Assembly: GCF_000021805.1 (NCBI RefSeq)
Contig: NC_011726.1
Location: 2,510,097 to 2,574,096 of the forward strand
Direction of reading: 5' to 3'
Length of the DNA: 64,000 bases
Origin: Rippkaea orientalis PCC 8801
Lineage (GTDB): Bacteria; Cyanobacteriota; Cyanobacteriia; Cyanobacteriales; Microcystaceae
Below, piece after piece: positions 11,902 through 63,192 of this stretch (positions are counted from its first letter, which is position 1; each line of letters begins with the position of its first letter). Below the pieces are notes generated by a model. That model saw nothing but the letters and a program-made list of their open reading frames with translations. It was not told the DNA's origin and did not search any database. The translations under genes and the position numbers were made by a program.

Positions 11902-13101
11902 TTAGAAAAAATCTGGCATCCAAGGAGTAGAACCTGAGAAAATAATTGTAGCAGCTTCAATAGCGTCTGGTGTTGCGTCAAGATCACCTAATAACTGAAG
12001 TTGAATTGGGGTAAATAAACCTGTATAAAGGGAAGCTAAACCCCGTATATTGAGGCGAAAATTGCATTTTCCTCCAGGGGTTACTTCCCCACATCCTTGG
12101 GAAACTCGCAAGCAAAATTTACCATTATTGGCAACAATTAGATCATCAGTTATTTCTAAGTGTAATTCTGTTTCTATGCCTTGAGGATAGCCTCGTTTTG
12201 ATAAGGCTAAAGGCACATTAACAACTCTTAACATCCAACGTTTTTGATACTTGATTTTAGCTGTTTGTTCAGGTAATAATAACAAAGTTGAATCCATCGG
12301 TGAACTTCGCCACTGTACTTGACTAGCCAAAGAACGATGAGCAGCCATAAAAGACCAGAAATGTTTAACTGAATCAGACGTTAATAACACCCAATCTTTG
12401 AGGATTAAATTTAATCCATTAGTTCCTTTTTCTTGAGTAAAAATAACATAACCTTCGGGTTGATTTTTCTCTCCAATAAGATAAGCATAGCTCTCTTGTT
12501 TACCTTGCACTTCTAGGGTTTTTTGCCAAATAGCAAAATTGCGATCTAAATTACCATTATTTTTTCTAGCTTGTTGTTGATAAATTGCTTCAAATTGTTC
12601 ATAATTAATAGGAGAAATAGACGTAATAGGGAGATTCTTCTCTGAAATTTGAATTGTATCAGTAGGTAACTCCCAAAGACAATAACTTCCCCCTTGTTCA
12701 TATCCAACTTTCCGATAAAGAACTTGAGTCGCTGGATAGAGGACAGAAATGGGATATCCTGAGTGATAAAGTTCCTCTAAGGTATGACTCAAAAGTTGGA
12801 ATGCAACTCCTTTTCCACGATGTTCTGGTGCAACTCCTACGGCAGCAATACCAGCCATTGGGATAAGATTTTCTCCATACCATTGTCCCATAAAATAAAT
12901 AGCTAAACCCGCAATTACTTGATCATTGTGATGAAGAATACGAAAATTTTGGCTACCAATACGATTAAAATAAGTTTCTGATTCTGTCAGAAATTCCGCA
13001 AAACATTGACTGATTAGTTTTTTAATTTGTTGTTCGTCTTCAGGATGACGCAGAGAACTGTAGTTAAGGGAGAATGTCATACCTTTCCAATCGTTACACA
13101 A
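11902..13101 (-). CDS. GNAT acetyltransferase, Eis-like two-domain architecture
   Basis: 399 aa. Acetyl-CoA binding-like motif VAPEHRGKGVAFQLL in the N-terminal half. Confidence 0.6.
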   Translation of the reverse strand: MCNDWKGMTFSLNYSSLRHPEDEQQIKKLISQCFAEFLTESETYFNRIGSQNFRILHHNDQVIAGLAIYFMGQWYGENLIPMAGIAAVGVAPEHRGKGVAFQLLSHTLEELYHSGYPISVLYPATQVLYRKVGYEQGGSYCLWELPTDTIQISEKNLPITSISPINYEQFEAIYQQQARKNNGNLDRNFAIWQKTLEVQGKQESYAYLIGEKNQPEGYVIFTQEKGTNGLNLILKDWVLLTSDSVKHFWSFMAAHRSLASQVQWRSSPMDSTLLLLPEQTAKIKYQKRWMLRVVNVPLALSKRGYPQGIETELHLEITDDLIVANNGKFCLRVSQGCGEVTPGGKCNFRLNIRGLASLYTGLFTPIQLQLLGDLDATPDAIEAATIIFSGSTPWMPDFF

Positions 13102-33802: not shown

Positions 33803-36520
33803 ATGTTTTTTCGTTACCTACGTTTTGTCTCAATCTCTTTAATTAGCTTGGTTTTAAGTCTATTTTTAACGACCTATCCCTGGTTGTCAGTGATTGCGTC
33901 TAGTCCTCCTCTTAACTCAATTAATCAAAGTCAACGACTAGAACAAGCAAAACAATGGTATCAACAGGGTCAACTCAACTTAGCCATTGAAACTTGGCGA
34001 GAAATAGCGATTTATTATGAAGAACAAGAAGATCAACTCAACCAAGCGCATATATTAACCTATTTAGCGTTAGCTTATTCTCAATTAGGAGCCTGGACAG
34101 AGGCTGAAGAATCGATTAATGATAGTTTAACTTTATTACAAGAAACGATTAAAACTAAGACAGAAGTTTGTTTACCAATTTTAGCAGAAGCCTTAAATGT
34201 CCAAGGAACATTATTTTTAGCTAAAGGGGATGCTTTATCAGCTTTATCAAGTTGGGAAAAAGCGACAAATACCTATGAGCAAGTCAGAGATGAATCAGGA
34301 ATTTTTCGTACTAAAATTAATCAAAGTATGGCATTAAAAGCATTAGGAAGCTATTCGAGAGCTTGCGAAAAGTTAGTAGAAGTTTTTAGCAATAATTCAT
34401 TAACTTGTAAACCTCTTAATCTTAAAAAAATAAATGATTTATTCTCAAGTTCTCTAGAGTCTTTATCGAGTATTAAAATAGCTGGTTGGAGTAGTTTAGG
34501 AGAAGTGTTAAAAGAAATGGCTGAACTGGACAGTTCTCAATTCATTTTTGAAACACTCTTGGAAAAGTCACCAGCAACAGAACAGCAAGCCAGCTTATTA
34601 GTTAATTTAGCAAAAACCCTACAATTACAGGGAAATATTGAAGAAGCTCAAGAAAAATTAATAAGAGCGATCGCACTTTCTAAAAATTCTCAAACCCAAG
34701 TCAAAGCGCAACTGATACAACTTCAATTATTGATCAATCAAAAACAATGGAATCAAATTGAAGCTTTGGTTAGCAATTTAGTCAATCAAATCTCTCAATT
34801 ACCCCTCAATCAAACTAAAATTGATGCTCAACTAACGTTAGCGCAACGCTTAATGGAAATTAAATCACCATCGTGGCAAGAAATTGACCAATTATTGCTT
34901 GAAGCTCAGAAAAATTCGGAAACTATTGGATATATCAGAGGACAAGCCTTTAGTCTCGGTAATCAAGGAGAACTTTATGAACAATTAGCACTTAGTAAAG
35001 TGTGCTATCTTAACAACAACAATCTTAGTCGCTACAGACAACAAACCCCCCTAAATTGTCATCAAGTTTATCAATTTACAGATATCAAACAGTTAGAAGC
35101 GATACCAAGTCAACTGTGGAAAAAAGCGTCTCAATTTACCGAACAAGCCCTCAAACATTCTCAAGCCCTACAAGCCCCAGAAATGACCTATTTATGGCAA
35201 TGGCAACTGGGGAGAATTTTAGCTGAATCGGGGCAAACAGGGGCAATAGAAGCCTATTTAGCAGCTATTGAGACCCTTGAAACAATTACCAATCAGTTAG
35301 GAACCAATCGGGAATTTCAATTTTCCTTTCAAGAAAAAGTAGAACCCTTGTATCGTCAATTGTTGAGTCTTTTGTTACCCCGCAATAATCAAGACTCGGT
35401 TCCTCAAGAACAATTAGTAGAAGCGCGTCAGCAAATTGAGGCCTTACAAGCAGCAGAATTGAATAATTTCTTTAGGGATGTTTGTGTGCAAAGTGAACCT
35501 GTGGCGATTGAAGACATTGATCCCCAAGCGGCTGTGATTTATCCCTTAATTTTACGCGATCGCTTAGTGGTTCTTCTGAGTCTTCCCAAACAACCCCTAC
35601 AAGCGTATGTGGTTCCGATAGAACAAGAAGAGTTAGAAAAAATCCTTCGGGACTTTCGCTACAATATCGTCATTCGCAGCCAACGGGAGTTTTTTATCAA
35701 TGCAGAACAACTCTATGATTGGCTTATCCGTCCTTTTAACCAACGATTACAGCAATCTAGCATTAAAACTCTGATTTTTGTTGCTGATGGCGTTTTTAGA
35801 AATGTTCCTCTAGCAGCTTTATACGATGGTCAACAATATCTCATCGAAAACTATGGCGTATCTTTAACCCCTGGATTAACTTTATTGTCTCCTGAATCCT
35901 TACAACAAAAGGGGTTAAATACTCTGTTTGCTGGATTAACGGCTGAAACGCCCAAAGACGGCTTTATTCCCCTATTTTACGTTCAACAAGAGTTACAGGC
36001 TGTTAAGTCCCAAGTCCCTAGTCTGTCTTTACTTAATGAGCAATTTACCTTAAGCAATTTACAAGATAATCTCCAGGATAATTTCTTTCCGATTCTTCAT
36101 TTTGCCACCCATGGTCAGTTTAGTTCGCAATTTGAAGAGACGTTTCTACTAGCCTGGAACAGTCGCATTAATATTTTACAATTGGAACGACTATTAAAAG
36201 AAAGCGCACCCACTCAAAGAGCAGCCATTGAATTATTAATTCTGAGTGCTTGTGAAACCGCTACAGGCGATCGCCGTGCTGCTTTAGGATTAGCCGGGTT
36301 TGCGGTTCGTGCTGGTGCCAGGAGTACTTTAGCGACGCTTTGGTCTGTTAATGACCAAGGGACAGCACTATTAATGGAACAGCTTTATAATCAATTAGCT
36401 CAACAAAAAATCTCTAAAGCTGAAGCTCTACGACAAGCACAATTAGTCTTATTAAAAGACCGTTGGTATCGACATCCTTTTTACTGGTCGCCTTATATTT
36501 TAGTGGGAAATTGGCTTTAA
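33803..36520 (+). CDS. TPR-repeat + CHAT-domain (caspase-like) protein
   Basis: 905 aa. C-terminal CHAT signature HFATHGQF ... LLILSACETATGD ... ATLWSVND (His/Cys dyad). N-terminal TPR-like repeats. Confidence 0.85.
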   Translation: MFFRYLRFVSISLISLVLSLFLTTYPWLSVIASSPPLNSINQSQRLEQAKQWYQQGQLNLAIETWREIAIYYEEQEDQLNQAHILTYLALAYSQLGAWTEAEESINDSLTLLQETIKTKTEVCLPILAEALNVQGTLFLAKGDALSALSSWEKATNTYEQVRDESGIFRTKINQSMALKALGSYSRACEKLVEVFSNNSLTCKPLNLKKINDLFSSSLESLSSIKIAGWSSLGEVLKEMAELDSSQFIFETLLEKSPATEQQASLLVNLAKTLQLQGNIEEAQEKLIRAIALSKNSQTQVKAQLIQLQLLINQKQWNQIEALVSNLVNQISQLPLNQTKIDAQLTLAQRLMEIKSPSWQEIDQLLLEAQKNSETIGYIRGQAFSLGNQGELYEQLALSKVCYLNNNNLSRYRQQTPLNCHQVYQFTDIKQLEAIPSQLWKKASQFTEQALKHSQALQAPEMTYLWQWQLGRILAESGQTGAIEAYLAAIETLETITNQLGTNREFQFSFQEKVEPLYRQLLSLLLPRNNQDSVPQEQLVEARQQIEALQAAELNNFFRDVCVQSEPVAIEDIDPQAAVIYPLILRDRLVVLLSLPKQPLQAYVVPIEQEELEKILRDFRYNIVIRSQREFFINAEQLYDWLIRPFNQRLQQSSIKTLIFVADGVFRNVPLAALYDGQQYLIENYGVSLTPGLTLLSPESLQQKGLNTLFAGLTAETPKDGFIPLFYVQQELQAVKSQVPSLSLLNEQFTLSNLQDNLQDNFFPILHFATHGQFSSQFEETFLLAWNSRINILQLERLLKESAPTQRAAIELLILSACETATGDRRAALGLAGFAVRAGARSTLATLWSVNDQGTALLMEQLYNQLAQQKISKAEALRQAQLVLLKDRWYRHPFYWSPYILVGNWL

Positions 36521-48397: not shown

Positions 48398-49057
48398 ATG
48401 TTAAAACTTTACCATTTGCCCATTTCTTTTAATTCTCGCCGTGTTTGGGTTGCTTTATTGGAAAAAGGACTAGAGTTTGAATTAATCCCCCTCAAACTCG
48501 ATGGAGATCAATTTACTCCCGAATTTTTGGCACTTAATCCATTCCATCATATTCCTGTTCTGGTTGATGGGGAATTTAGCGTCTTTGAATCTTTGGCTAT
48601 TCTGGATTATCTTGAAGCTAAGTATCCTAACCCTTCTTTTTTACCCAGTGATCCCCAAGGGTTAGCACGAGTCCGTATGATAGAGTTTGTGACGGTTAAT
48701 GAATTGATCCCGGCAATGACTCCTTTATTAAGGAATATGCTAGGAATTATGGAAATTACCCCGGAAAAGCAAGAAGAAGCCTTAGGAAAAATTAAACCTG
48801 TTCTTGACTTGTTTGAAGACTGGTTAGGCGATCGCGTCTATTTAGTGGGGGATACTCTCAGTTTAGCAGATATCGTCGCTGGAACCATTGTTCCGATGTT
48901 ACCGATGTTTGGCGTGAAATTGACTGGTTATACTGGTTTAACCGCTTGGGTAAAACGGTTAATGTCCCGTGACAGTTGGTCTTCTACTCAAGCAACTCCT
49001 CAACAAATTGATACATTTAAACAGACAATGCAAAAGATGATGTCTCAAAGGGGTTAA
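48398..49057 (+). CDS. Glutathione S-transferase
   Basis: N-terminal thioredoxin-like GST domain (LYHLPIS.NSRRV...) plus C-terminal helical domain. 219 aa. Confidence 0.85.
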   Translation: MLKLYHLPISFNSRRVWVALLEKGLEFELIPLKLDGDQFTPEFLALNPFHHIPVLVDGEFSVFESLAILDYLEAKYPNPSFLPSDPQGLARVRMIEFVTVNELIPAMTPLLRNMLGIMEITPEKQEEALGKIKPVLDLFEDWLGDRVYLVGDTLSLADIVAGTIVPMLPMFGVKLTGYTGLTAWVKRLMSRDSWSSTQATPQQIDTFKQTMQKMMSQRG

Positions 49058-49237
49058 ACATTAAGTGTTTTAGCTGTGTCAAGGCAATACTCGATTGACG
49101 CAGCTACACTATGGCAAGAGAAATGGTTTGAGTTATTGCCTAATTACACCTTGTATTCTAACCCAGACAATTAAGGGTTTTGCGTTATAGTGCGTAGGAA
49201 GATTGGTTCAACTAAAGCGAATTAACAAGAATTATTT

Positions 49238-50035
49238 ATGGAATACTTTTGCCAAGAGATAAACCAACCTGATGACCAAATCAACTTAGCAAAAGCTGCT
49301 TTATATTTTGCTCAAGAAGAATATCCTACTCTAGACGTAGAAGACTATCTTAATGCTTTAGATACAATGGCAGAAGAAGTTAAGGAACGTTTGCCAGAAA
49401 CCTTATATCCTCTCAAGATTATTAAGACGATTAATGAATATTTGTTTAAGGATTTGAAGTTTAGAGGAAATACCAGTGATTATTATGATCCTGATAATAG
49501 CTATCTCAATCAAGTGATTGACAGACGAACAGGGATTCCTATTACATTAGCTATTATTTATTTAGAAATTGCTAAACGGCTTAATTTTTCGATGGTAGGA
49601 ATTGGAATGCCAGGACATTTTATCATTCGTCCTGATTTTGAAGAGGTGGGAATTTTTGTTGATGTTTTTAACCAAGGGGAAATTTTATTTGAACAAGACT
49701 GTATCCAAAAACTCAGCGAAGTTTACCAACAACCGATGAAATTAGAACCTCATTTTCTTGAACCGGTTAGTAATCGGCAAATTTTAGCCAGAATGCTCAC
49801 AAATTTAAAATATATTTATATTAATGCTGAAAAATATCCCAAGGTTCTGAGAATTATTGAACTGCTTCTTATCATCTTTCCTAATCATCCCTTAGAACTG
49901 CGCGATCGCGGTTTATTATATTATCATCTGGGACAATGGCAACAAGCCACCAAGGATCTCAATTTATACTTAGCGATGTTACCCACGGCTCAAGATGCTC
50001 ATGCCATCCGTGAACTTTTGCAAAAAATTCGTTAA
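49238..50035 (+). CDS. SirB1/transglutaminase-like N-terminal domain + TPR protein (UPF0162)
   Basis: 265 aa. IGMPGHF motif typical of the family. Confidence 0.65.
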   Translation: MEYFCQEINQPDDQINLAKAALYFAQEEYPTLDVEDYLNALDTMAEEVKERLPETLYPLKIIKTINEYLFKDLKFRGNTSDYYDPDNSYLNQVIDRRTGIPITLAIIYLEIAKRLNFSMVGIGMPGHFIIRPDFEEVGIFVDVFNQGEILFEQDCIQKLSEVYQQPMKLEPHFLEPVSNRQILARMLTNLKYIYINAEKYPKVLRIIELLLIIFPNHPLELRDRGLLYYHLGQWQQATKDLNLYLAMLPTAQDAHAIRELLQKIR

Positions 50036-50076
50036 ACTATTAATGATTCCCTATTGTCTATCCCTTTAAAAAAGCT

Positions 50077-51009
50077 GTGTTTTTTAGTGTCGTCATCCCT
50101 ACCTATAACCGTAAACCGATTTTAGAAAAATGTTTACGAGCCTTAGAAAAGCAACAGTTAAGCGATCATAAAGTCACTGACTATGAAGTGGTTTTAGTTG
50201 ATGATGGATCAACCGATGGAACCCTAGAATGGTTAACAGAACATAGCGCAGAATTTCCCCATGTCCGTCCTTTTGTCCAAAACCATCTTGGTCCCGCAGC
50301 AGCTAGAAATTTAGGGGTAGAAAAAGCTCAAGGGGATACGATTATTTTTATTGATAGTGATCTGGTAGTAACAGAACAATTCTTACAGTCCCATGCTGAT
50401 GCTTTAGTTGACGGAAAAGAAAAATTAGGGGATGATCGACTATTTACCTATGGTGCAGTGATTAATACTTGTAACTTTGATAACCCGACTTCAGAACCTT
50501 ACAAAATCACGGATTTTTCAGCAGCCTATTTTGCAACCGGGAATGTCGCAATTGATCGGAAATGGTTAGAAAAAGTGGGACTATTTGATACAGGGTTTCA
50601 ACTCTATGGGTGGGAAGATTTAGAGTTAGGCGTTCGTCTCAAAAAATTAGGTTTAAAGTTAATTAAATGTCCTGAAGCGGTAGGTTATCATTGGCATCCT
50701 CCCTTTAGTTTAGCTGACATTCCTAACCTGATTGACAAGGAAATTCAACGGGGAAGAATGGGGGTATTATTCTATCAAAAACATCCCACATTTGAAGTCA
50801 GATTAATGATTCAAATGACGTTATTACATCGCGTTTTATGGGGAATTTTGTCGTTAGGAGGAATGTTAAATGAACGGACGCTTGCACCGTTTTTACAGTG
50901 GTTAATTGATCAAGGTAAACCTCAATTAGCCTTAGAAGTGGCTCGAATTTTTCTCAATTGGTATAACGTTAAAGGGGTTTATTCTGCCTATCGAGAATTA
51001 CAAACCTAG
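50077..51009 (+). CDS. Family-2 glycosyltransferase
   Basis: GTG start. N-terminus VVIPTYN. DxD (FIDSD). 310 aa. Confidence 0.75.
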   Translation: MFFSVVIPTYNRKPILEKCLRALEKQQLSDHKVTDYEVVLVDDGSTDGTLEWLTEHSAEFPHVRPFVQNHLGPAAARNLGVEKAQGDTIIFIDSDLVVTEQFLQSHADALVDGKEKLGDDRLFTYGAVINTCNFDNPTSEPYKITDFSAAYFATGNVAIDRKWLEKVGLFDTGFQLYGWEDLELGVRLKKLGLKLIKCPEAVGYHWHPPFSLADIPNLIDKEIQRGRMGVLFYQKHPTFEVRLMIQMTLLHRVLWGILSLGGMLNERTLAPFLQWLIDQGKPQLALEVARIFLNWYNVKGVYSAYRELQT

Positions 51010-51030
51010 CGTTTAAAAGATACTCCCAAT

Positions 51031-51258
51031 CTAAGCAAAACTAGCTACTTCTACAGGACGTTCAACCGCCAAAATTTGGCGATTTCGCTTAATTTCTTGT
51101 ATTTTATGTAGGGTTTGAGCACTTAGATAACTTTCACCACAATGGGGACAACTGACAAGCGGAATATTTTCTACGATCAGTAGATCTTTTCCTTTACCAT
51201 AAGCCCTAGAAATTAGGCGAATTTTTACACCATCGATTCCACAAATATCACAAATCAT
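51031..51258 (-). CDS. YgiT/MqsA-type zinc-ribbon antitoxin-like protein
   Basis: 75 aa. CDICG ... CPHCG zinc ribbon. Confidence 0.6.
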   Translation of the reverse strand: MICDICGIDGVKIRLISRAYGKGKDLLIVENIPLVSCPHCGESYLSAQTLHKIQEIKRNRQILAVERPVEVASFA

Positions 51259-51278
51259 GTTTTTTCTTTGAGCTTCTA

Positions 51279-51392
51279 TACAGTATACACTGTAATAATA
51301 ACAACTTTTCCAGTTGGACTTAGTTTAACTATAATTTCAACTTCTTCACCATCAAGAGTTCTTCCTCGAAAATGATGGGTTACTTTGATGAC
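51279..51392 (-). pseudogene. N-terminally truncated DUF4258-type toxin remnant
   Basis: The frame directly after the RelE-like gene stop reads VIKVTHHFRGRTLDGEEVEIIVKLSPTGKVVIITVYTV*. This is DUF4258-like, with no start codon. It ends 17 nt before the zinc-finger antitoxin start. Confidence 0.4.
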
Positions 51393-51647
51393 TTATTCTC
51401 CATAATGCGTCTTTGCACGGTGAATATAAACTAGCTTTTGTGTCTCGTCAATGGTATAAATAATTCTATCTTGATAAGATAAACGAAGGGAAAAGAAACC
51501 AACAAGATCTCCGACAAGCTTTTTACCGCTATAAGGGTTAATACTCAGGGTATCTTCAATAATTTTTTTGAGTTTTTGTTTTAATTTTGGAGTAAGTTTA
51601 GCAATATCTTTTTTAGCTTCCTTGGTAAAACGGACTTCGTAAACCAT
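51393..51647 (-). CDS. RelE/ParE (YoeB/Txe-like) family toxin
   Basis: 84 aa. C-terminal region ...RIIYTIDE..VYIHRAKTHYGE. Its start overlaps the antitoxin stop by 1 nt. Confidence 0.75.
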   Translation of the reverse strand: MVYEVRFTKEAKKDIAKLTPKLKQKLKKIIEDTLSINPYSGKKLVGDLVGFFSLRLSYQDRIIYTIDETQKLVYIHRAKTHYGE

Positions 51648-51907
51648 TAATCAATGTCTCCTAATACTTCCTCTAGGGAATAGGTTTCATTATTGGTGAT
51701 TTGTTTTAGAGATCTTTGTAAGCTTTCTCTTAACCCAGGAATTGACAATAATTCAATGGTTTCTTGTAAACTTTCATAGCTTTTTTGTGAGATTAAAATA
51801 GCCGAACCATCAGTCATCTCTATTTCATAACTTTGGTTTTCTTGGGTGACTGATTTAACTAGGTTTATTAAGTTTTCTTGAGCATCACTAATGGTGAGTT
51901 TTTCCAT
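51647..51907 (-). CDS. yefM: Phd/YefM-family antitoxin
   Basis: 86 aa. MEKLTISDAQENL...SYESLQETIELL matches the YefM family. Confidence 0.75.
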   Translation of the reverse strand: MEKLTISDAQENLINLVKSVTQENQSYEIEMTDGSAILISQKSYESLQETIELLSIPGLRESLQRSLKQITNNETYSLEEVLGDID

Positions 51908-52183
51908 ATTTTTTAGATCTCTTATTTATTATCAGTTTACTACACAATTTAAAGTATAGTAAGTTCCCTGCTCGTGAGGTACAACGTAGGGGCGTGGTTT
52001 CCACGCCCGTAAACCATCTAGGGGTTAAGTGTACTTCCATTGTAGTCTTTTAGTGCGTATTGCTACAGGCTTGATCTTATTAATAAATATTTTTGTACTA
52101 ATTATAATTAATTAACAAAATCGATCCGCCTAACGGCGGAAAAACAGGAAGAATAGAGGGCAAAAGAACAAAAGAACAAAGGG

Positions 52184-53938
52184 CTAAAAAGTCCTGGGGG
52201 GCGCACAAACAACTCGCACACCGACATTAGAGAGGTAGTCGCGAGGGAGGCCGTAGAGGTTGCGGAAGGCGCAACGGCAAGCATTAGGAATGTAGTTGCA
52301 AGAACCGCCGCGTAGTATCTTTGTAGTATCATTGTCACTAGAAGTCCAAGCACTACCATCTCTGGGTGCACCTTGATAGTTTGCATGATAATCATCCAGA
52401 CACCATTGCCAGACATTACCGTGCATATCGTATAAACCAAAAGCATTAGGGGAAAATTGACCGACAGGTGTCGTTTCTTGCCTATATTGCCCCTTGGGTT
52501 CGTCAGCATAAACATAGTTGCCATCATAATTAGCTAAATCTGTGGTTATCGTCTCTCCACGGTAAAACGGTAGGTTATATTTCTGATTCCATTCTTCTAT
52601 TGCTAACTCTTCACTGATAACTGATAACTGATAACTGTTAACTGACCTACAAGCATACTCCCATTGTGCCTCTGAGGGTAGTTGATAGTCCTTTCCTGTC
52701 TCCCTAGACAGTCGCTGACAAAACTCCACTGCTTCATACCAATTAACGCATTCTACGGGTCTATTATCCCCTGTAAAATGGGAAGGGTTCGGGTTAAGAT
52801 CGATATTAACTTTATCTAAAACCGCGATCGCTTGCCATTGCTTTTGAGTAATGGGATATTTCCCCATAAAAAAGAGCGAAACAGTCACTTGATGTTGGGG
52901 TTTTTCATTTCTAAACCAGTCAGTATCATATTGTTTACAGAGTCTTTCTATTTCGGGATTATCCGTTCCCATCCAAAAACTCCCCCCAGGAATAGAAACC
53001 ATCTCTAAAATAAAATTATTACCTAAAGTTTCTTTAAAATACTCTGCTGTACCCGTAGTTCGACTAATTTCCTCACCGCGACTATTAACGGTAATAATAT
53101 CAAAGAAAAATCGATTTTCCGACTGTTGCTGTTCAAATTCAATAACAATCTTTTCCAAGTCAGACGGTTGTAATTTGTAATAAGTTTCTAGTTGTTTTAA
53201 ATCATCGATCGCTGCTTGAGTTAAAGGATATTGTTGTGCTGCGTAGTGGGTAAAGGCTTTTTTATACTTATCAAGATTTTTTTGATAGTCCTGATAGGGT
53301 TTTAATACGGCTGTTTCAATGGTTTCAACTTCTATATCGCTTAACCCTACTTCTGTTTGTAAATCCTTGAGAATGAGTTGAGCCGCAAAAGAAATCTGAC
53401 CATTAATAACTAATTCTTGAACTTTTTGATGATATTGATTTAAGGAGGCTTTTTTCTTTGCTTCTTGTTCTTTTTGTTGACGTTTTGTCATTAAATCTGT
53501 AGCAGAACGTTGAATACCTTGACTAACATTCAAAAATGCCTCATCTTGATTCTTCCAAGAAGTAATAGGGGCAGCATCTTTCGGTAAAAATTGCAACTTA
53601 CCAAAGGGGGCATTTTTCCAATTCACGGGACGTAAAATAACAGGAATAACCACGACTTCCCCTGCATTGTGCCGTTCCATTGCTACTTTAATTTCGATAT
53701 CCCAACAATATTCAGAAGCAATAAAATCAGCACTAATTAGCAAGAGAATAATATCTGCTTTTCTGAGATTATCATCAATTTGATGATCCCATTCCTCTCC
53801 CAGCAAAATCTTGTGATCGTGCCAATTGCTAATAATTTTTTCCCGTTCTAGTATTTTGAGATGTTTTTCCAATTCATCCCGTAGCGGTTCATCTTTGTGG
53901 GAATAGGAAAAAAAGAGGGTTAATGCAGGTTGTCCCAT
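52184..53938 (-). CDS. TIR domain + coiled-coil linker + FGE-sulfatase (SUMF1/C-type-lectin-fold) domain fusion protein
   Basis: N-terminal TIR region FFSYSHKDE...ILLLISADFIASEYCWDIE. C-terminal FGE-domain region GGSFWMGT..., RGGSW, ...YDMHGNVWQW. Confidence 0.8.
   Translation of the reverse strand: MGQPALTLFFSYSHKDEPLRDELEKHLKILEREKIISNWHDHKILLGEEWDHQIDDNLRKADIILLLISADFIASEYCWDIEIKVAMERHNAGEVVVIPVILRPVNWKNAPFGKLQFLPKDAAPITSWKNQDEAFLNVSQGIQRSATDLMTKRQQKEQEAKKKASLNQYHQKVQELVINGQISFAAQLILKDLQTEVGLSDIEVETIETAVLKPYQDYQKNLDKYKKAFTHYAAQQYPLTQAAIDDLKQLETYYKLQPSDLEKIVIEFEQQQSENRFFFDIITVNSRGEEISRTTGTAEYFKETLGNNFILEMVSIPGGSFWMGTDNPEIERLCKQYDTDWFRNEKPQHQVTVSLFFMGKYPITQKQWQAIAVLDKVNIDLNPNPSHFTGDNRPVECVNWYEAVEFCQRLSRETGKDYQLPSEAQWEYACRSVNSYQLSVISEELAIEEWNQKYNLPFYRGETITTDLANYDGNYVYADEPKGQYRQETTPVGQFSPNAFGLYDMHGNVWQWCLDDYHANYQGAPRDGSAWTSSDNDTTKILRGGSCNYIPNACRCAFRNLYGLPRDYLSNVGVRVVCAPPRTF
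52614..52641. repeat. Heptanucleotide repeat (ctgataa x3, ctgttaa) embedded in-frame in the TIR-FGE CDS
   Basis: The same 7-mer family, in reverse complement, as at 32911. It encodes SYQLSVIS. Confidence 0.7.
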
Positions 53939-54034
53939 ATTCTAGTGGATTGAGGGCGATCGCTTGGACAATACGACTATTATAATAGCATTTTAGACTT
54001 GGTATATGAGGGTTTATCCTAAAATAACACAGAA

Positions 54035-55555
54035 CTATTTAAGCAACTTTTGTAACCAATTCCAGCATTTAACCACCCATTCTTCTACCCATAATATAAT
54101 GCGATCAAGCCATTCTAAAATATGAACTAAGGGATGTTTAACATAACCCGTTGATTTAGCTTTAGTTTCGATCCAATCAGGTAATATATCTGGAGAATTA
54201 TCCTGATGTTCAAGTTTATTTAATGAAGTCGAAGACAGGGAAACGTTACTAACTGATCTTTCTATTTTTTCCTCTGTTACTATTTCGTGATGGACAGTTT
54301 GACGCTTTTTAATTGCTTTAGGCTCATTTTGACGTTTAAGTTGACGCTTTAAGCGTTTTTTTTCGGATTTTCGAGGTTTAGGTGGTAAATTAGACGATTG
54401 AAGTAACGCAGGAGGAGAGAGAGAAACAGAGGGATGGGGAGATTTTGCCGAAAGTTCTTGATATAAATCATCCCAAGATAACCAAGGATCATCTAGAGGT
54501 TTATAGGCTAATTTTTGTGATGGTAAACTATAATTAGATGAAGAACTTTGTTGTAATTTTGTATTAACAGAAGTTTGACCAAAAAAGTAATCAATTGCAG
54601 CAAAAATCAACATCTTTATAGCAAAAGGATTTCCCGTTTGATCCTGCAAAGATTCCTTGGCTTGTTTCTCTAATTTATCTCCCCATTCTTTTACGGGTTT
54701 CACTAAAGATTCAAGGGGAATTTGATCAACTAATTCCCTTAAATTAACCGAATAGGGAAGCACTTGTAAGGCTGATTCTTGAGAAGTTAAAGCTTTTTTA
54801 GTTTCGGTTTTATCTAAGTCATTAATAGTTTGTTGAATCAACATTTTTATGTCTTGTAAAGATGACTCAAAATCAACATTAATCATCTCTATTTCTTGAG
54901 GACTAACCCCTAGGGAAGATTCCTCAAATAGATTAAGTTTAATCGCAACTGGACTGGTTTGAACCCACCGCATTGTTTGCCAAAATAATCGAATAGGTGG
55001 TAACACATTGTTAGAAGCATTAGAAAAGCTAGAAATTAAACCAGGAGTTATTCGAGTCTGATGGTATTTTAAGCGATTTTCATAGTAATAATTAGCCGTT
55101 TCTAATCGAATATGATTTTCCAGGGTTTTTTGCTGACTAAAGGACAAAAGATCAAGGGTTTGATTATCTTTACTGACTAAAACCAGATGACGATTTTCTA
55201 AGAGATTAGCAATTCCTTGAAAGGTTAACTTAGGAGTAATTTGATGATCATTTTCCTCTTCCGTTGTCAGCAATAAAGGGTCAATTTCTTGTAAAATGCG
55301 ATTAATCGGGCGATCGCTCTCTAAAAAAACGGTAGAATTATCCGCTATAGTTGTTGCTTGTCCCAGTCGTTTGCGTGCTGTCCGTCCAGCTTGTACGACA
55401 ACATACACTGGATACAAGACGAGTTGTATACCCCAGGTTGCAGCTAATTTAAGGTGTCGCGTAGTACGATGAAGGCGATCGCGTAACTGCAAGGATTGAC
55501 GGTTTAGAAAGTTAAACAGTCTACTTTTATAGGGACTACTGCTAGAAGAGGACAT
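54035..55555 (-). CDS. Hypothetical protein (Ser-rich N-terminus, one TM segment, basic K/R-rich region)
   Basis: 506-aa ORF with no recognisable domain. Confidence 0.55.
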   Translation of the reverse strand: MSSSSSSPYKSRLFNFLNRQSLQLRDRLHRTTRHLKLAATWGIQLVLYPVYVVVQAGRTARKRLGQATTIADNSTVFLESDRPINRILQEIDPLLLTTEEENDHQITPKLTFQGIANLLENRHLVLVSKDNQTLDLLSFSQQKTLENHIRLETANYYYENRLKYHQTRITPGLISSFSNASNNVLPPIRLFWQTMRWVQTSPVAIKLNLFEESSLGVSPQEIEMINVDFESSLQDIKMLIQQTINDLDKTETKKALTSQESALQVLPYSVNLRELVDQIPLESLVKPVKEWGDKLEKQAKESLQDQTGNPFAIKMLIFAAIDYFFGQTSVNTKLQQSSSSNYSLPSQKLAYKPLDDPWLSWDDLYQELSAKSPHPSVSLSPPALLQSSNLPPKPRKSEKKRLKRQLKRQNEPKAIKKRQTVHHEIVTEEKIERSVSNVSLSSTSLNKLEHQDNSPDILPDWIETKAKSTGYVKHPLVHILEWLDRIILWVEEWVVKCWNWLQKLLK

Positions 55556-55670
55556 GATTAAATCGCTAACCTAAGTTGCTTTTTATTATGCCTGAAATCT
55601 GTCCTTTTTGCCTAGGTGAGTTTTAAGACTGTTTTCTCTTAATCTTAAGGTAAAGAATAATAAACAATTT

Positions 55671-56759
55671 TTAACTGATAGGAACTCCTTTTTTGGTTAA
55701 TAATTCTCGAACATCAAGAAGAACAGGAAAGACTTCTTGATTCCAGTCCCCTCCTTGAAGATTATAAGCAGTTTGTTCCGCTTCAACAATCATTTTATCT
55801 TCCGCAAAAATAACCCCAGTAAAATAACGCATTAATGGCCACAAAAGATGAATTAATCCAGGGATTTTAGGTTGACGAATCATCAGCATTCCAAAACTAT
55901 GATTTCTTTTTTGTTCTCGATCAATTGGAATATACGAAACCCAAAGATCAAGAAAGGGAAGATCAGAACCTGAAGGACAAACCCGTAAAATTTGATAGGG
56001 ATATTCTGTCCGAATAGTCATAATATCAAAATCAGAAGTTGCTAATTCTGAGGTTTCTTTGCGTCCCGGAGCTAAGACTAAATTTGCGCTAAGATGAGGT
56101 TCTCCACTAAACTTGTATTTAGCTTCTACCCAATTATCTCCTTTAGAATTTTCTACTAAAGTAGGTTTAACTTTCCCCATAAATCTCCGATGTAAAAATT
56201 GATGATTCATATCCATTAAATTCTCTTTTAGAAATGAATAATGACAATTAACTTGACGAGAAAAATACATTGTTTTATAATTGGAATTAGACCAATTTTG
56301 TATCTCAGGAAATGCCACAGTTTCGGCTAATTCTGGGATGCCAGGAAAAACAAAAATATGGCCATAAGCTTCTTGACAAGGATAACTTTTAACCCCCTTC
56401 GGTAAAGAACATCCTTGCGGTAAATAGGGAACTTTTGTTACTTTTCCTGTTTGATTATATTGCCAAGCATGGTAAGTACATTGAATCGTATTACCACAAA
56501 CTATCCCCATACTTAAAGGAACTTGTCGATGAGCACAACGATTTTCAAGGGCAAAAAGTTGATTAGATTTTGTCCGAATTAAAACGATAGGATTACCCGC
56601 AAAACTTACTGCATAAGGTTTCTCAATTTTAACATCTTTTGCTTGTGCTAAAGGATACCAAAAATTAGGATTTAAACCAACTTTGCGTAAATCAGTAGGA
56701 ACTTTTAAAGAATAAATATTATCTGATAAATGGGTAGCTTTTTCATTAGTTTGTACCAT
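55671..56759 (-). CDS. Rieske [2Fe-2S] non-haem iron oxygenase (PaO/Tic55-like size)
   Basis: Rieske motif CAHRQ...17 aa...CTYHAWQY. 362 aa. Confidence 0.75.
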   Translation of the reverse strand: MVQTNEKATHLSDNIYSLKVPTDLRKVGLNPNFWYPLAQAKDVKIEKPYAVSFAGNPIVLIRTKSNQLFALENRCAHRQVPLSMGIVCGNTIQCTYHAWQYNQTGKVTKVPYLPQGCSLPKGVKSYPCQEAYGHIFVFPGIPELAETVAFPEIQNWSNSNYKTMYFSRQVNCHYSFLKENLMDMNHQFLHRRFMGKVKPTLVENSKGDNWVEAKYKFSGEPHLSANLVLAPGRKETSELATSDFDIMTIRTEYPYQILRVCPSGSDLPFLDLWVSYIPIDREQKRNHSFGMLMIRQPKIPGLIHLLWPLMRYFTGVIFAEDKMIVEAEQTAYNLQGGDWNQEVFPVLLDVRELLTKKGVPIS

Positions 56760-57031
56760 ACTTAATTTCCACTCCTATTAATTTTTTACACCACAAGACC
56801 TTGCTTTCATGCCAAATCTGCTTTTAAATAATAAAATTATTAAATGAACAAAATCCGATAGAGACGTTGCCGAGAACGTCGCTACTGTAATAAGCAAATT
56901 GGGTATCACACTTGATTAGAAAGCAATATTGTGAGAATTATAAAACCTTTCTCAAAAAAAGGGATAGCTGATGGCTAAAATGTCTACAAATCTAGATATT
57001 GTAAACTTTCAATAATTCAGACAAAGCCTAT

Positions 57032-58009
57032 CTACTGTCCTCCTAAAGCCTCTACAATTGTCTTAGTATTAGCTCGCAGCATCTTAACATAACTATCTCC
57101 CTCGCTTTCAGGTGCTCCAATGGAATCTGCATAAAGGGGGTTAGGGGCAAGTTTAACCCCTGCTTCTTGGGCAACTGTGGTGATTAAAGCAGGATTAATC
57201 GTTGTTTCGGCAAAAATTGACGTAACCTTGCTTTTTTTAATCTCTTCTGTTAAATTTTTAACCGTTTGAGCACTCGGCTGTTCTTCCGTACTAATGCCAA
57301 TTAATGTCCCAATTACCTGTAACCCATAGGCTTTAGCATAATATTGAAAAGCATCATGGGTAGTTACTAACTTACGTTGTGCTTCAGGAATGGTTTTAAT
57401 TTGTTCAATAATCCAGCTATCAAGACGTTCTAACTCGGTAATTAATATCGCTGCATTTTGTTTAAAAATCGACGCATCTTCTGGCGATAATTCGATTAAT
57501 TTATCCCGAATTACTTCCACCATTTTAATGACATTTTTGGCATCTCCCCAAACATGAGGATCGGGTTCTTTTTGTCCCTTATAGACATAATCTAATGGCG
57601 TAACAACCTCAGCAACAGCAACTTTTTTTGCTTTAATTCCTGAAGCTTTCATCAATTTAATTAACCCAGGTTCAAGATTATAACCGTTATACAAAATGAG
57701 ATCCGCTTCTTCAAAAGCCACACTATCAGTCGGTACAGGTTCATAAACATGAGGATCAGCCCCTGGTTCTAAGATACCTTGATGATCCACCTCGTCTTTG
57801 GCAATTTCTTCCGTTAAATTGGCAATAATAGTACTGGTAGAGACAACTTTGGGTTTATCGCTATCTCCCGTCGAAGTATTGGGGGACTGACACCCAGTCA
57901 TCCCCACCCCGACAATTATCCCTAAAACCAGTAATTTAGATAAAAACCGAGATATTCCTCCTCTATTGCTTCTTTTGTCCATCATCAATGCCCTCAAAAT
58001 TATTTTCAT
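57032..58009 (-). CDS. Metal (Mn/Zn) ABC transporter substrate-binding lipoprotein, TroA/ZnuA/MntC family
   Basis: Lipobox LTGC. Cluster A-I SBP fold. 325 aa. Confidence 0.8.
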   Translation of the reverse strand: MKIILRALMMDKRSNRGGISRFLSKLLVLGIIVGVGMTGCQSPNTSTGDSDKPKVVSTSTIIANLTEEIAKDEVDHQGILEPGADPHVYEPVPTDSVAFEEADLILYNGYNLEPGLIKLMKASGIKAKKVAVAEVVTPLDYVYKGQKEPDPHVWGDAKNVIKMVEVIRDKLIELSPEDASIFKQNAAILITELERLDSWIIEQIKTIPEAQRKLVTTHDAFQYYAKAYGLQVIGTLIGISTEEQPSAQTVKNLTEEIKKSKVTSIFAETTINPALITTVAQEAGVKLAPNPLYADSIGAPESEGDSYVKMLRANTKTIVEALGGQ

Positions 58010-59898: not shown

Positions 59899-60090
59899 AT
59901 GAAAGTTAAAGACGTGCTAAAGCGACTCAAAGCAGATGGATGGTATCAAGTTAGGATGAGGGGTAGTCATCGAATTTTAGCGCATCCTACCAAGTCAGGA
60001 ATTGTTGTCGTTCCAGGAAAATTGAGTAATGATATTCCTATTGGAACTTTATCAGCTATTTGGAAACAAGCACAATTAGGAGATGAATAA
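59899..60090 (+). CDS. hicA: HicA-family toxin
   Basis: 63 aa. LKADGWYQVRMRGSHRIL matches the HicA family. Confidence 0.8.
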   Translation: MKVKDVLKRLKADGWYQVRMRGSHRILAHPTKSGIVVVPGKLSNDIPIGTLSAIWKQAQLGDE

Positions 60091-60339: not shown

Positions 60340-63192
60340 TTATAACCAATTGCCTACTAAAACAAAGGGAGCCCAATAGAAAGCATGGTGATATTCCCCA
60401 GAGTGCAATAAAGACAGTTGTGCTTGACGTAGTGCCTCAGCTTTAGTGATTCCGGGTTGATTTAAGATCTTATAGAACTCGGCCATCAAATTCGCCGTAG
60501 ACTGGTCTTGGACTGACCAAAGAGTGGCGATGGTACTGCGGGCTCCTGAACGCACTGCGACCCCGGCTAATCCTAATACGGCTCGTTTGTCGCCAGTAGC
60601 AGTCTGACAAGCACTTAAAATCAACATTTCGATCGGAGTTTGCTGTTTTTCTTCCCGTTCGCGTAACAATTGATCTAAGTTTTTCACATTAATCCGTTCA
60701 TCCCATGTCAGCAAAAACGTCTCTTCAACTTGGGAAGAAAACTGACCATGGGTTGCCAGATGAACAATGGGAAAGGACGTGGACTCAATTTTTGTTTGTA
60801 GACGCGGGCGAGTAAATTCTTGATTTAAGAGGATTTCTGCGGGGAGAATTTCAGAGATGTCTTTAACTTCTTGGGTGACTCCAGGCAACGCGGAGAAACC
60901 CTGACGAGCTTCTGCTAAGCCACCGGCCAGGATTTTTAACTTTTCTTGAGACAGCGATCGCGGACTTAATAATTGTAACCCCGGAGTCAGGGCAATACGG
61001 TATTTTTCAATTAAATACTCCTTCCCATCGTGTAGGGCAGCCATGGGTACACCTCGTAACAGTCCATCGAGAACAAAAACTAAAGTTTTAATGTTATTTT
61101 CTTTTAATTCTGTTTCTAAGGGACGAATGAGCCAATTATAAAATTGTTGATGGGGACGAAGGGGGTCGGGACTAGGAATAAAGGGGTTTAAGTTGGCAAA
61201 CATCTCATCAAAAACTTCTTCTATTTCCCTCGATGAAGTCTGATTGAATTGCTTATTGAGGGTTGTTTCGTGGTAGCTTAAGGGCTGGTTCGGAACCGAT
61301 AAAATTACCGCCAGACGTTCGGGTAAAACAATGGAATAGATAACGGCTGCGTGGGGATCAATTTGCTCAATTTGTTGTGGTTGCGCCTCAATACAGGCTT
61401 CCCGAAAGAAGTTATTGAGTTCAGCTAATTGTAGTGATTCTATAAGGTCGCGGGCTTTTTTTAGGTTTTCCTGACTAATTTTTTCTGGGTTTTCCGGTTG
61501 ATTAGAAGACGGTTGCAAGAGTTGAGCCACCAGTTCCCGATAGACGGGTTCTACGCTATCACGGAAGTCAAATTGAAGGTCTGTATTCGTCACCACTAAG
61601 TCCTGTCGTAGCGACTCAAGGATATCCACGGTTAACCTATAGGCTGCGATCGCTTTGGTATTTTCTCCTTGGAGTTGGTACAATCTCCCTAGTTGCCATT
61701 GCCACAAGTAGGCGATTTCAGGATAATTAAAGCCAGAAACCTTTTGCAAGGCAAGTTCGGTTAACTCTTGTGCTTTTGTTAAATTTCCCATTAGTTGATA
61801 GCTGGCACCTAAATACCCTAAAACATTCGCTTGAGAGGGGTTATGCTCGATGTTTTTTGCTTGGTTAAGGGTTGTTTCTAGAAGGTTTTGGATGGTTAAC
61901 CAAGAGGTTATCTGTTCTTGGGTCAGATAACTTTTAAAACCTGGTTTGACGATGGAACAAGATTGTAAAATTGGTGGGGTTAGTTGATTGAAACTAGCCT
62001 GAAAAGAATTTTGAAGACACATTAATTGTTGTACAAATTTTAGTTTGATTAAAATCGTTTTTTGACTGGATGGTAATACCGTTAGCCTGTCTTCAATTTG
62101 ATTGATTAAAAGAGGAATTTCTTTTCCTTGCTGTTGTTGGATTAATAAACTTAATAAATTTAGCTGTGCTTGTATTTTAGTTAGCGAGCTACTTCCTATT
62201 TGAGCTTGACGATAGCAAGCGATCGCTTGTTGATAAAATTGTTCACGGGTTTGATAGGTTGACGAGGGAATACAACTGATTTCACTGCGTAACTCTATTG
62301 TTCTTGGTTGGGGATTTCTCGCAGGGGTTTGGTTGCCTAAAATTTGAGCAGTATTCCCTAAACTCAGGGCAAGAGTGGCTAAGATTTCAGGATCTTTTTG
62401 AGGTTGGGCTAATTGGAAACTTTTTAATAAAACCTTTTGAGATTGTTTAGTTTGTCCCGTTACTCGTAAGACATTCCCTAGACTCCGCAATCCCAATATT
62501 TGTAAAGAAATTGCTGTATTTTCTTGGGGAATAAGTTGTAGTTTTTCTTCGGATATTTGACAGTCTTGACTATTGATGTTTAAAGCGTCTAATAAGGTCT
62601 GACAAGCTCTTGGATAAAATCCTAACTGTTGCATCGCTTGAGCTTGATTAATTTGACTTTGAATAACTTGGGTTTGATGACTATTTTTTTGATAAATACT
62701 AGCAGCTTTCTGCCAAGTTTCAAGGGCATTTTGGGGTTGTCCTAATGCTAATTTTAACTGTCCGTCAATGTCTAAACTGGCTGCCAAAATTCCCTGCTGT
62801 ACTGTCGTCTTTTCTTGATTATCTAGGAGGGATAAACTTTGAGCGATCGCGGTTTTTGCTTCCTCCCATTCTCCTAACTGTTGATAACTTAAGGATACAT
62901 TACTCAAAGACATACTTTGGTTTAATACATCCCCTTGTTCACGAAAAAGATCGGCTGCTTGTTGCCAAATTTTTACTGCTTCTGAGAATTGTTGTGATTG
63001 ATATAATTGTTGTCCTTTTTGTATTAATTCAAGTGGATTGCTTGAATAGGAAAGGGCAGCTTGCGTTATTACAATAGGGGCTATTAAAGAGATAAAAAAA
63101 AGCAAAATCAATACAAGCAAGGCTCTTATATTGTAGAATTTTTTGCTCAAATATCTAAATATTTGTTTGAGCTTAGGGTATTTTTTCTGCAT
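60340..63192 (-). CDS. TPR-repeat + CHAT-domain protein, a paralog of the ORF at 33803
   Basis: 950 aa. C-terminal VHLATHGQF...LILSACQTATGD...ATLWSVQD is nearly identical in motif layout to the other CHAT protein. Confidence 0.85.
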   Translation of the reverse strand: MQKKYPKLKQIFRYLSKKFYNIRALLVLILLFFISLIAPIVITQAALSYSSNPLELIQKGQQLYQSQQFSEAVKIWQQAADLFREQGDVLNQSMSLSNVSLSYQQLGEWEEAKTAIAQSLSLLDNQEKTTVQQGILAASLDIDGQLKLALGQPQNALETWQKAASIYQKNSHQTQVIQSQINQAQAMQQLGFYPRACQTLLDALNINSQDCQISEEKLQLIPQENTAISLQILGLRSLGNVLRVTGQTKQSQKVLLKSFQLAQPQKDPEILATLALSLGNTAQILGNQTPARNPQPRTIELRSEISCIPSSTYQTREQFYQQAIACYRQAQIGSSSLTKIQAQLNLLSLLIQQQQGKEIPLLINQIEDRLTVLPSSQKTILIKLKFVQQLMCLQNSFQASFNQLTPPILQSCSIVKPGFKSYLTQEQITSWLTIQNLLETTLNQAKNIEHNPSQANVLGYLGASYQLMGNLTKAQELTELALQKVSGFNYPEIAYLWQWQLGRLYQLQGENTKAIAAYRLTVDILESLRQDLVVTNTDLQFDFRDSVEPVYRELVAQLLQPSSNQPENPEKISQENLKKARDLIESLQLAELNNFFREACIEAQPQQIEQIDPHAAVIYSIVLPERLAVILSVPNQPLSYHETTLNKQFNQTSSREIEEVFDEMFANLNPFIPSPDPLRPHQQFYNWLIRPLETELKENNIKTLVFVLDGLLRGVPMAALHDGKEYLIEKYRIALTPGLQLLSPRSLSQEKLKILAGGLAEARQGFSALPGVTQEVKDISEILPAEILLNQEFTRPRLQTKIESTSFPIVHLATHGQFSSQVEETFLLTWDERINVKNLDQLLREREEKQQTPIEMLILSACQTATGDKRAVLGLAGVAVRSGARSTIATLWSVQDQSTANLMAEFYKILNQPGITKAEALRQAQLSLLHSGEYHHAFYWAPFVLVGNWL

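Follow-up and report, generated by a model that had tools for sequence, protein, structure and literature searches.

A probable single-chain TIR and C-type-lectin sensor–effector with a retroelement-derived variable region in Rippkaea orientalis PCC 8801

Diversity-generating retroelements (DGRs) rewrite the ligand-binding tip of a large class of cyanobacterial multidomain proteins, among them those that combine a TIR domain with a domain of the C-type-lectin (CLec) type. Such TIR-CLec targets and their paralogues have already been catalogued (Vallota-Eastman, 2020; Kaur, 2020; Doré, 2024). A 'Toll receptor TIR, CLec' target is listed for Nostoc sp. CENA543, and TIR-like N-termini occur among the cyanobacterial DGR variable proteins and their paralogues (Vallota-Eastman, 2020); the TvpA-like, DGR-linked FGS domain, always C-terminal in multidomain proteins, is joined to at least ten N-terminal domains in cyanobacteria (Kaur et al., 2020). 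CLec domains of this kind have been interpreted as the hypermutated sensors by which conflict systems recognize antigens (Doré et al., PNAS 2024), and an effector-plus-sensor reading of the protein class has been proposed from comparative genomics (PMC7159879, PMC10907252). The class as a whole has been put forward as antigen sensors of abortive-infection-like systems or as regulatory sensors. Here, a member of this class encoded by PCC8801_2480 in Rippkaea orientalis PCC 8801 is described. The gene lies in a 64 000 nt stretch of the chromosome (contig NC_011726.1, positions 2 510 097–2 574 096), referred to as the window; positions are counted from its first nucleotide.

The 584-residue product is 100% identical to ACK66489.1/WP_012595756.1 of R. 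orientalis (Cyanothece) PCC 8801. Its assignment to the TIR-CLec family and the origin of its variable region (VR) in a DGR are very probable, and the protein as a whole is best explained, with reasonable confidence, as a single-chain sensor–effector of the cyanobacterial DGR variable-protein family with a VR that is now frozen. The architecture and the DGR link are both published, and the PCC 8801 copy brings no new principle; it adds an orphan in a unicellular strain, a natural TIR-deleted allele in a near-identical strain alongside the intact copy, and a defined element of CT tract, hairpin and TCGA motif. As an orphan, it would show that receptors of this kind persist with a frozen VR in a unicellular strain without a linked DGR. 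A first-pass annotation made from the letters alone had read the gene as an effector joined to a sensor, with the adjacent 506-residue protein as a possible partner; the architecture holds and the partner does not. New with respect to that annotation are the identity of the FGE domain as a DGR-type lectin domain, the DGR footprint at the 3′ end of the gene and the status of the hairpin as a conserved 3′ element and not a chance feature.

The homologue in Nostoc sp. CENA543 (AUT00751.1; P0009/L001, loci and contigs being cited below by such numbers) is 49% identical over 100% of the length. The two genes have in common the order of TIR, helical linker, β extension and FGE-fold CLec domain, the VR scaffold with its CAGGACT end, the CT tract and the TCCGCC/GGCGGA hairpin. 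In L001 the TIR-FGE gene is directly followed by bAvd, an RVT_1 reverse transcriptase (RT) and a 129-nt template repeat (TR), and 14 of the 15 TR–VR mismatches fall at TR adenines. The same holds for 17/19 mismatches in L008, 14/15 in L009, 15/16 in L032 and 19/20 in L036. In PCC 8801, by contrast, a Phd/YefM–ParE pair sits downstream of the hairpin, where the DGR-bearing relatives have bAvd and RT, no DGR parts are present in the 64 kb, and the protein carries the substitutions W547C, S556C and F574V together with a 20-residue insertion. The cassettes themselves vary: in L008, bAvd and a TR accompany an RT that is truncated at aa 159, and in L009 a TR (12205–12330) follows the target gene at a distance of 260 nt, the 3.6 kb of contig showing no RT. 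L007 (3148–5800) is syntenic with the CENA543 DGR locus (L001 10001–14400) and has no bAvd, RT, TR or hairpin; loss of the DGR with retention of the target gene therefore does occur.

Across 120 homologues the C-terminus follows the scaffold RGGSW-xxx-P-xx-CRSA-x-R-x(6–13)-GFRVV, in which the x positions are mostly N, Y, D, S, F, R or G. As judged from the alignment, a rigid scaffold with variable x positions is the signature of DGR-written VRs, and the VR of PCC 8801 is homologous to VRs that have a cognate TR in L001, L008 and L009. Third-position C was found in 15 of its 22 variable codons and in 69 of 543 codons (13%) in the rest of the gene (Fisher p = 9e-9); for third-position C or T the values were 21 of 22 and 52% (Fisher p = 3e-5), and none of the 22 codons ends in A. 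The adenine content is 13% in the VR versus 34% elsewhere, and the GC content 57% versus 38%. The 3′ boundary, CAGGACT, is of the VR type, the TRs having CAGCACT or GAGTACT. Mutagenesis of the adenines in an AAC/AAT-rich template would be expected to leave such a codon and adenine footprint. The three scaffold residues at which the PCC 8801 copy deviates are otherwise invariant in the family and encoded by adenine-free codons, and the codon changes are non-adenine (TGG to TGC, TTT to GTG). The 20-residue insertion (NSYQLSVISEELAIEEWNQK) occurs in one of 70 homologues, the PCC 8801 protein alone, is modelled with a pLDDT below 50 and is not present in the sister-strain allele described below.

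The C-terminal FGE/SUMF1-type domain named in the first-pass annotation was recovered as Pfam PF03781 (FGE-sulfatase, aa 312–577, 3e-49). The relatives of known structure that match best are PvdO (the top PDB match), FGE from human and bacteria, and TvpA, the DGR variable protein of Treponema denticola. Profile alignment with wild-type human FGE (hFGE) places the family-invariant C554 on C341, and it places hFGE C336, the second Cu(I) ligand, on the hypervariable position 549, which is Tyr in the 584-residue protein. The bis-cysteine Cu(I) site (human C336 and C341) was thus not found in this alignment, only the C341 equivalent being kept, and the FGE domain is therefore regarded as a binding module; since C336 aligns to a hypervariable codon, the VR would occupy the FGE active-site loop. 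The NCBIfam equivalog cut-offs for PvdO, EgtB, SenA and GldK were not reached, the best score being 126 bits against 500 for PvdO and the rest lying far below. On these alignments the domain is a non-catalytic, DGR-type variable C-type-lectin domain. The names under which the protein is deposited ('DUF323', 'TIR domain-containing protein' and 'SUMF1/EgtB/PvdO family nonheme iron enzyme') and its ThsB match need to be read accordingly: 'DUF323', the nonheme iron enzyme name and ThsB are misleading for this protein.

The N-terminal TIR domain was confirmed by Pfam (TIR_2, aa 9–117, 5e-14; TIR, aa 13–159), by an AlphaFold2 (AF2) model of the 584-residue protein built on 70 homologues, in which it has a pLDDT of about 90, and by Foldseek matches to plant TIRs, Cat1 and SPARTA. 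Cat1 is the best PDB match to the TIR family profile (7.5e-11). The PADLOC model ThsB1 (PDLC00420) matches aa 7–166 over profile positions 3–160 of 319 (6e-62). The candidate catalytic residue, E82, is invariant in 70 of 70 TIR-FGE homologues and falls, in the family profile alignment, on the conserved Glu of Cat1, the plant TIR AtTIR and TLR TIRs. Each alignment has a one-residue insertion before it, so that the motif reads Y-C-W-D-I-E versus the canonical W-C-x-D-E. A TIR domain without this Glu had been named in advance as evidence against a catalytic role; the Glu is kept, as its invariance and its alignment to the conserved TIR residue indicate.

The linker proposed between the two domains was borne out in its helical part: AF2 predicts aa 131–274 to be all-helical (pLDDT >90), with a 46-residue helix followed by a helical bundle. 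The model is confident for the TIR domain and linker, which are followed by a β extension and a less confident FGE-fold domain. The TIR clade (54–58% identity) also heads TIR-NB-ARC-TPR, STAND-WD40-TIR, TIR-TPR and TIR-linker-GUN4 proteins, which fits a modular effector head with interchangeable sensors. Over TIR domain and linker (aa 1–274) the identity to a Nostoc TIR–helical linker–GUN4 protein is 56%, the linker being common to both. Fusions to other sensors were located at L015 3951–5558, L078 4771–7224, L088 6629–10450 and L090 9980–11485; the STAND-WD40-TIR member is from Sorangium.

The short hairpin reported after the gene in the first-pass annotation exists, although its form and position had to be corrected to TCCGCC-GTTA-GGCGGA on the coding strand at 52125–52140. 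It folds with −7.3 kcal/mol as DNA (z = −4.1) and −12.5 kcal/mol as RNA. Among 76 related 3′ ends, 17 have an all-GC 5-bp stem with a 3–4 nt loop at +25 to +75 nt, the rate in random windows drawn from these loci being 1.3%; loci with evidence of a DGR have the element more often (7/17 versus 10/59, p = 0.049). In 21 other loci, stems that are identical or compensatory lie at +31 to +68 nt, these instances having been chosen for perfect stems, so that pairing itself is ascertained and a covariation count would be circular; the enrichment, the position, the flanking CT tract and the TCGA-T tail lie outside this selection. The stem TCCGCC/GGCGGA is found in PCC 8801, L001, L006, L008, L018 and L019; elsewhere the stem is CGCGC/GCGCG, GGCGC/GCGCC or CCCGCC/GGCGGG, with loops of GTYA or 3 nt. 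CT tracts (74–97% C+T) precede the hairpin in 17 other loci, and the segment of CT tract and hairpin is 81–100% identical in nucleotide sequence to that of other genera. The hairpin is found at every FGE-gene 3′ end in L030, L031 and L036 (RT, Avd and target), and also in L001 and L008, where it lies between the VR and bAvd; there is none after the L001 TR.

Retrohoming of the DGR of phage BPP-1 depends on a GC-rich hairpin that lies downstream of the VR and has a 4-nt loop; the phage consensus has stems of 7–10 bp and GRNA loops 4–34 bp from the VR, and a parallel has been drawn with group IIC introns, which target terminators (Guo, 2011; PMC3240598). The PCC 8801 hairpin differs in having a stem of 6 bp, a GTTA loop and a distance of 44 nt from the VR. 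By analogy, the cyanobacterial element may be regarded as a shorter and more distant variant of the BPP-1 hairpin. The hairpin is probably a DGR target-recognition hairpin, a terminator or both, the two roles being compatible. The 3′ flank of the gene helped to define the element of CT tract, hairpin and TCGA-T-run that follows cyanobacterial DGR-type genes; the main survey of cyanobacterial DGRs only speculated on one. A second perfect hairpin, GGGCGTGG-TTT-CCACGCCC (8-bp stem; 51990–52008, plus strand), lies inside an intergenic segment of about 230 nt (51954–52183) that is missing from the sister-strain contigs, and Logan contig L002 ends at 52005, within its 3′ arm.

A second allele was found in a near-identical strain. 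The flanks of Logan contigs L091–L093 are 97–100% identical to the window (from the DUF928 gene to the 506-aa gene, and from Phd/ParE onward), and L091 6165–7149 (also L092 and L093) is syntenic with 51953–54034 and holds a decayed TIR-FGE allele. Its TIR open reading frame (ORF), MGQPALTL...EKIISN, stops after aa 38; a deletion of about 730 nt takes out aa 39–284. What is left is an FGE-only ORF of 261 aa that keeps the canonical scaffold; CT tract and hairpin have also been deleted. The gene is therefore strain-variable and dispensable in R. orientalis. The alleles are 95% identical in nucleotide sequence where the lectin domain begins, dropping to about 50% over aa 513–584, and their scaffold codons differ synonymously; the two 3′ ends therefore come from separate VR lineages rather than a single template. 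Contig L002 (Logan SRR9434861) is 100% identical to the window over 8068 nt; it represents the same strain, and its identical VR is therefore not independent evidence of stability.

The search for the parts of a DGR covered the 64 kb window. No TR was found in it by blastn (word size 7), and a degenerate scaffold pattern matched the VR alone; RT and Avd gave no match there by tblastn with the L001 proteins, and no RT domain was found among the 28 window ORFs scanned with Pfam. The degenerate pattern had 0 matches in the genome-contig collection, which is without the PCC 8801 chromosome (no self-match). Two DGR censuses (2012 and 2020) list Cyanothece CCY0110 and not PCC 8801, of which three proteins appear in the 2020 list of CLec homologues, and no paper mentioning both PCC 8801 and DGRs was found in the literature searched. 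It is likely that the VR was written by a past DGR and is now frozen, the gene being an orphan or relic target. This is favoured because TR, RT and Avd are absent from the window, the strain is absent from the censuses, and the scaffold deviations and the insertion are present.

In the mechanism proposed, the variable lectin face would bind a particular ligand, which could plausibly be a molecule of phage or other foreign origin, and binding would drive oligomerization through the helical linker. With the TIR domains brought side by side, E82 would serve to cleave NAD+ or to produce a signal derived from ADPR, and this could lead to growth arrest or abortive infection. Such a ligand-triggered NADase or immune mechanism is putative and is put forward tentatively, at somewhat below an even chance. 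Several points weigh against it, or against the wider explanation given above. A regulatory or signalling role is favoured over immunity by Vallota-Eastman (2020), and the neighbourhood is mostly housekeeping and not a defence island. E82 lies one residue further from the conserved aromatic residue than in canonical TIRs, which leaves the catalytic geometry putative. The scaffold deviations, the unique insertion and the decayed sister allele could reflect relaxed selection. A TR or RT could lie elsewhere in the chromosome, beyond the 64 kb covered. For NADase activity, ligand and immune role alike, no biochemical or genetic study of any TIR-CLec protein was found in the literature searched.

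The proposed logic, in which sensor-driven oligomerization activates the TIR domain, is that of the TIR NADase effectors. Cat1 (CARF-TIR), SPARTA (TIR-APAZ), plant TNLs and TIR-STAND/Avs-like proteins have a TIR domain and the conserved Glu in common with the PCC 8801 protein, which differs from them in using a DGR-type lectin sensor via a helical linker, with no NTPase switch or nucleotide-binding sensor. The antigen sensors of Doré et al. (2024) resemble it in combining a CLec sensor with a death or immune effector (TIR, CHAT or peptidase), hypervariable sensing being coupled to cell death. They are mostly STAND- or MoxR-associated and occur in multicellular bacteria with active DGRs, whereas the PCC 8801 protein forms one chain that lacks an NTPase and comes from a unicellular cyanobacterium with no linked DGR. 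TvpA of T. denticola (PDB 2Y3C) differs in being a secreted lipoprotein without a TIR domain. The VMAP/iSTAND ternary systems (Kaur, Burroughs, Iyer & Aravind, 2020) depend on partners of the MoxR and vWA types; no MoxR AAA ATPase or vWA domain was found in the neighbouring ORFs or in six homologue neighbourhoods, and membership of such a system was rejected.

Other explanations were weighed for the parts of the protein and for its 3′ element. The C-terminal domain might be an enzyme, FGE or a PvdO/EgtB-like oxidase, as the NCBI name implies and as the Pfam match, the sub-threshold NCBIfam matches to PvdO and EgtB and the top PDB rank of PvdO might suggest. This is scarcely credible, given that all of the NCBIfam matches lie far under the curated cut-offs, that a hypervariable codon stands at the hFGE C336 position, that the neighbourhood has no genes for a sulfatase or for pyoverdine/ergothioneine, and that the relatives are diversified by DGRs, a process known only for binding domains; true FGE membership was rejected on the Cu(I) cysteine pair and the NCBIfam cut-offs. 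The strong PADLOC match would suit a Thoeris-type ThsB, in which the TIR domain detects infection and signals to a separate ThsA effector through a cyclic ADPR isomer of its own making, but the match covers the TIR half of the model only, the PCC 8801 TIR is fused to its own sensor domain and the same TIR clade heads NLR-like proteins. No SIR2/Macro/SLOG (ThsA-like) gene was found within 10 kb, among the window ORFs scanned or in the six homologue neighbourhoods. A Thoeris role is thus highly improbable, and membership was rejected, a ThsB-type TIR being present and an adjacent ThsA effector not found. For the hairpin, a function as intrinsic terminator only, with no DGR role, is a less likely reading that nonetheless deserves some weight: it was flagged as terminator-like in a consensus scan, a T-run follows it in most family copies and its RNA fold is stable at the value given above. 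The stem is only 5–6 bp, however, terminator-like matches in the region are not above shuffles (3 versus 3.6), the stem, GTYA loop, CT tract and TCGA motif are kept at the nucleotide level across genera, and the element tracks DGR-type genes in the comparison already described.

The remaining alternatives concern the state and purpose of the whole gene. It could be a live remote target, with a TR and Avd/RT elsewhere in the PCC 8801 chromosome rewriting 52190–52321 via the CAGGACT boundary and the hairpin. All of the cis features of a recipient VR are indeed kept, 76 of 121 DGR-linked targets in cyanobacteria are remote (Vallota-Eastman, 2020) and the TR of L009 stands without a nearby RT. The lack of TR, RT and Avd in the 64 kb, the silence of both censuses, the non-adenine scaffold codon changes, which suggest drift, and the loss of hairpin and TIR domain in the sister strain make this improbable. 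Less remote, though still unlikely, is a non-immune signalling or regulatory module that senses stress or environmental ligands, or else a decaying, functionless relic in PCC 8801. Such a reading would accommodate the housekeeping neighbourhood, the pseudogenization in the sister strain, the scaffold deviations with the unique insertion, and the fusion of the same TIR and linker to GUN4, a tetrapyrrole-binding regulatory domain. Set against this, the ORF is intact over 584 codons, all TIR motifs including E82 are kept, the TIR clade is common with NLR-like STAND architectures typical of immunity, and strain-level presence or absence is itself typical of defence genes. Of similarly low probability is a more specific version of the sensor–effector explanation, in which a DGR would have 'affinity-matured' the lectin tip and then been lost, leaving in a unicellular, culturable cyanobacterium a germline-fixed, single-chain pattern-recognition receptor that would still be specific for one phage or other foreign ligand and act by NAD+ depletion, with the CT tract, hairpin and TCGA motif as the cyanobacterial form of the DGR homing signal. 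If it were true, PCC 8801 with the intact gene and the sister strain with the TIR-deleted allele would form a natural isogenic pair for receptor function.

The positions of the features are collected in Table 1. Both ORFs described in the first-pass annotation, of 584 and 506 aa, are present, and the lack of a recognizable domain in the 506-aa protein agrees with the absence of matches in Pfam, PADLOC and NCBIfam. Its suggested role as a partner fails: it occurs in 0 of 80 loci with TIR-FGE relatives, nor was a homologue found in the six annotated homologue neighbourhoods, and there is no synteny. Homologues (30–50% identity) occur across a wide range of unicellular cyanobacteria and in some filamentous ones; the reduced-genome Epithemia/Rhopalodia diatom endosymbionts have them too. 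Those in Crocosphaera subtropica ATCC 51142, the Epithemia turgida endosymbiont and Pleurocapsa PCC 7327 have different neighbours each time, and no TIR-FGE gene lies beside them in these three genomes. Because of this lack of co-occurrence and these differing neighbours, the 506-aa protein is taken to be merely adjacent; the TIR-FGE protein has no conserved partner gene. The AF2 model of the 506-aa protein is poor (pLDDT 59, pTM 0.26); between a long helix at the N-terminus and a strongly conserved one at the C-terminus (aa 475–505), the protein is mostly disordered.

Table 1. Positions in the window of the TIR-CLec gene, its parts and neighbouring features.
Feature	Position	Strand	Basis or remark
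TIR-linker-CLec (FGE-fold) gene, 584 aa	52184..53938	−	PCC8801_2480, ACK66489.1; ORF and Pfam; 100% protein match
TIR domain, aa 1–130	53549..53938	−	Pfam, PADLOC, AF2 pLDDT about 90
Candidate catalytic Glu, E82	codon 53693–53695	−	Invariant in homologues; profile alignment
All-helical linker, aa 131–274	53117..53548	−	AF2 pLDDT >90; no Pfam match
β extension (aa 275–311) and FGE-sulfatase/C-type-lectin-fold domain (aa 312–584)	52187..53116	−	PF03781, PDB matches
20-aa insertion, aa 434–453	52580..52639	−	In the lectin domain
VR equivalent, aa 540–583	52190..52321	−	RGGS-x4-P-x2-CR-x-A-x-R-x13-G-x-RVV; ends CAGGACT
Pyrimidine-rich tract, 88% C+T	52141..52183	−	Between stop codon and hairpin
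GC hairpin, TCCGCC-GTTA-GGCGGA	52125..52140	−	6-bp stem, 4-nt loop; starts 44 nt after stop
TCGATTTTGTTAA tail	52112..52124	−	After hairpin; family consensus TCGA(A)TTTTTT (22 instances aligned)
506-aa ORF	54035..55555	−	Upstream of TIR-FGE gene; ORF list
Phd/YefM	51647–51907	−	Directly downstream of TIR-FGE gene
ParE/YoeB-like	51393–51647	−	Toxin–antitoxin pair with Phd/YefM
75-aa Zn-ribbon ORF	51031–51258	−	Next after Phd/ParE pair
HicA	59899–60090	+	
HicB-like ORF	to ~60305	+	Follows HicA

The surroundings had been called a stretch rich in toxin–antitoxin genes. This applies modestly, to the Phd/YefM and ParE-like pair and the HicA and HicB-like pair; the remaining neighbours are housekeeping genes (ZnuABC, Rieske oxygenase, GT2 and GST). 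An Rfam search over 49000–58000 gave no match. Two large TPR-CHAT (caspase-like protease) proteins are encoded at 33803–36520 (plus strand) and 60340–63192 (minus strand), one of them about 6.4 kb from the TIR-FGE gene; TPR-CHAT proteins are a sensor–effector 'conflict' class typical of cyanobacteria. An 830-aa protein at 9387–11879 (plus strand) joins a NERD nuclease-related domain, a UvrD-like helicase C-terminal domain and C-terminal pentapeptide repeats, an unusual architecture that is possibly defence-related. A 139-aa ORF in another frame (52108–52527, minus strand) overlaps the 3′ end of the TIR-FGE gene and is most likely a frame artefact of the adenine-poor, stop-codon-poor variable region. 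A HIP1 palindrome (GCGATCGC) at 53956–53963, 18 nt upstream of the TIR-FGE start codon, is kept in the sister-strain contigs.

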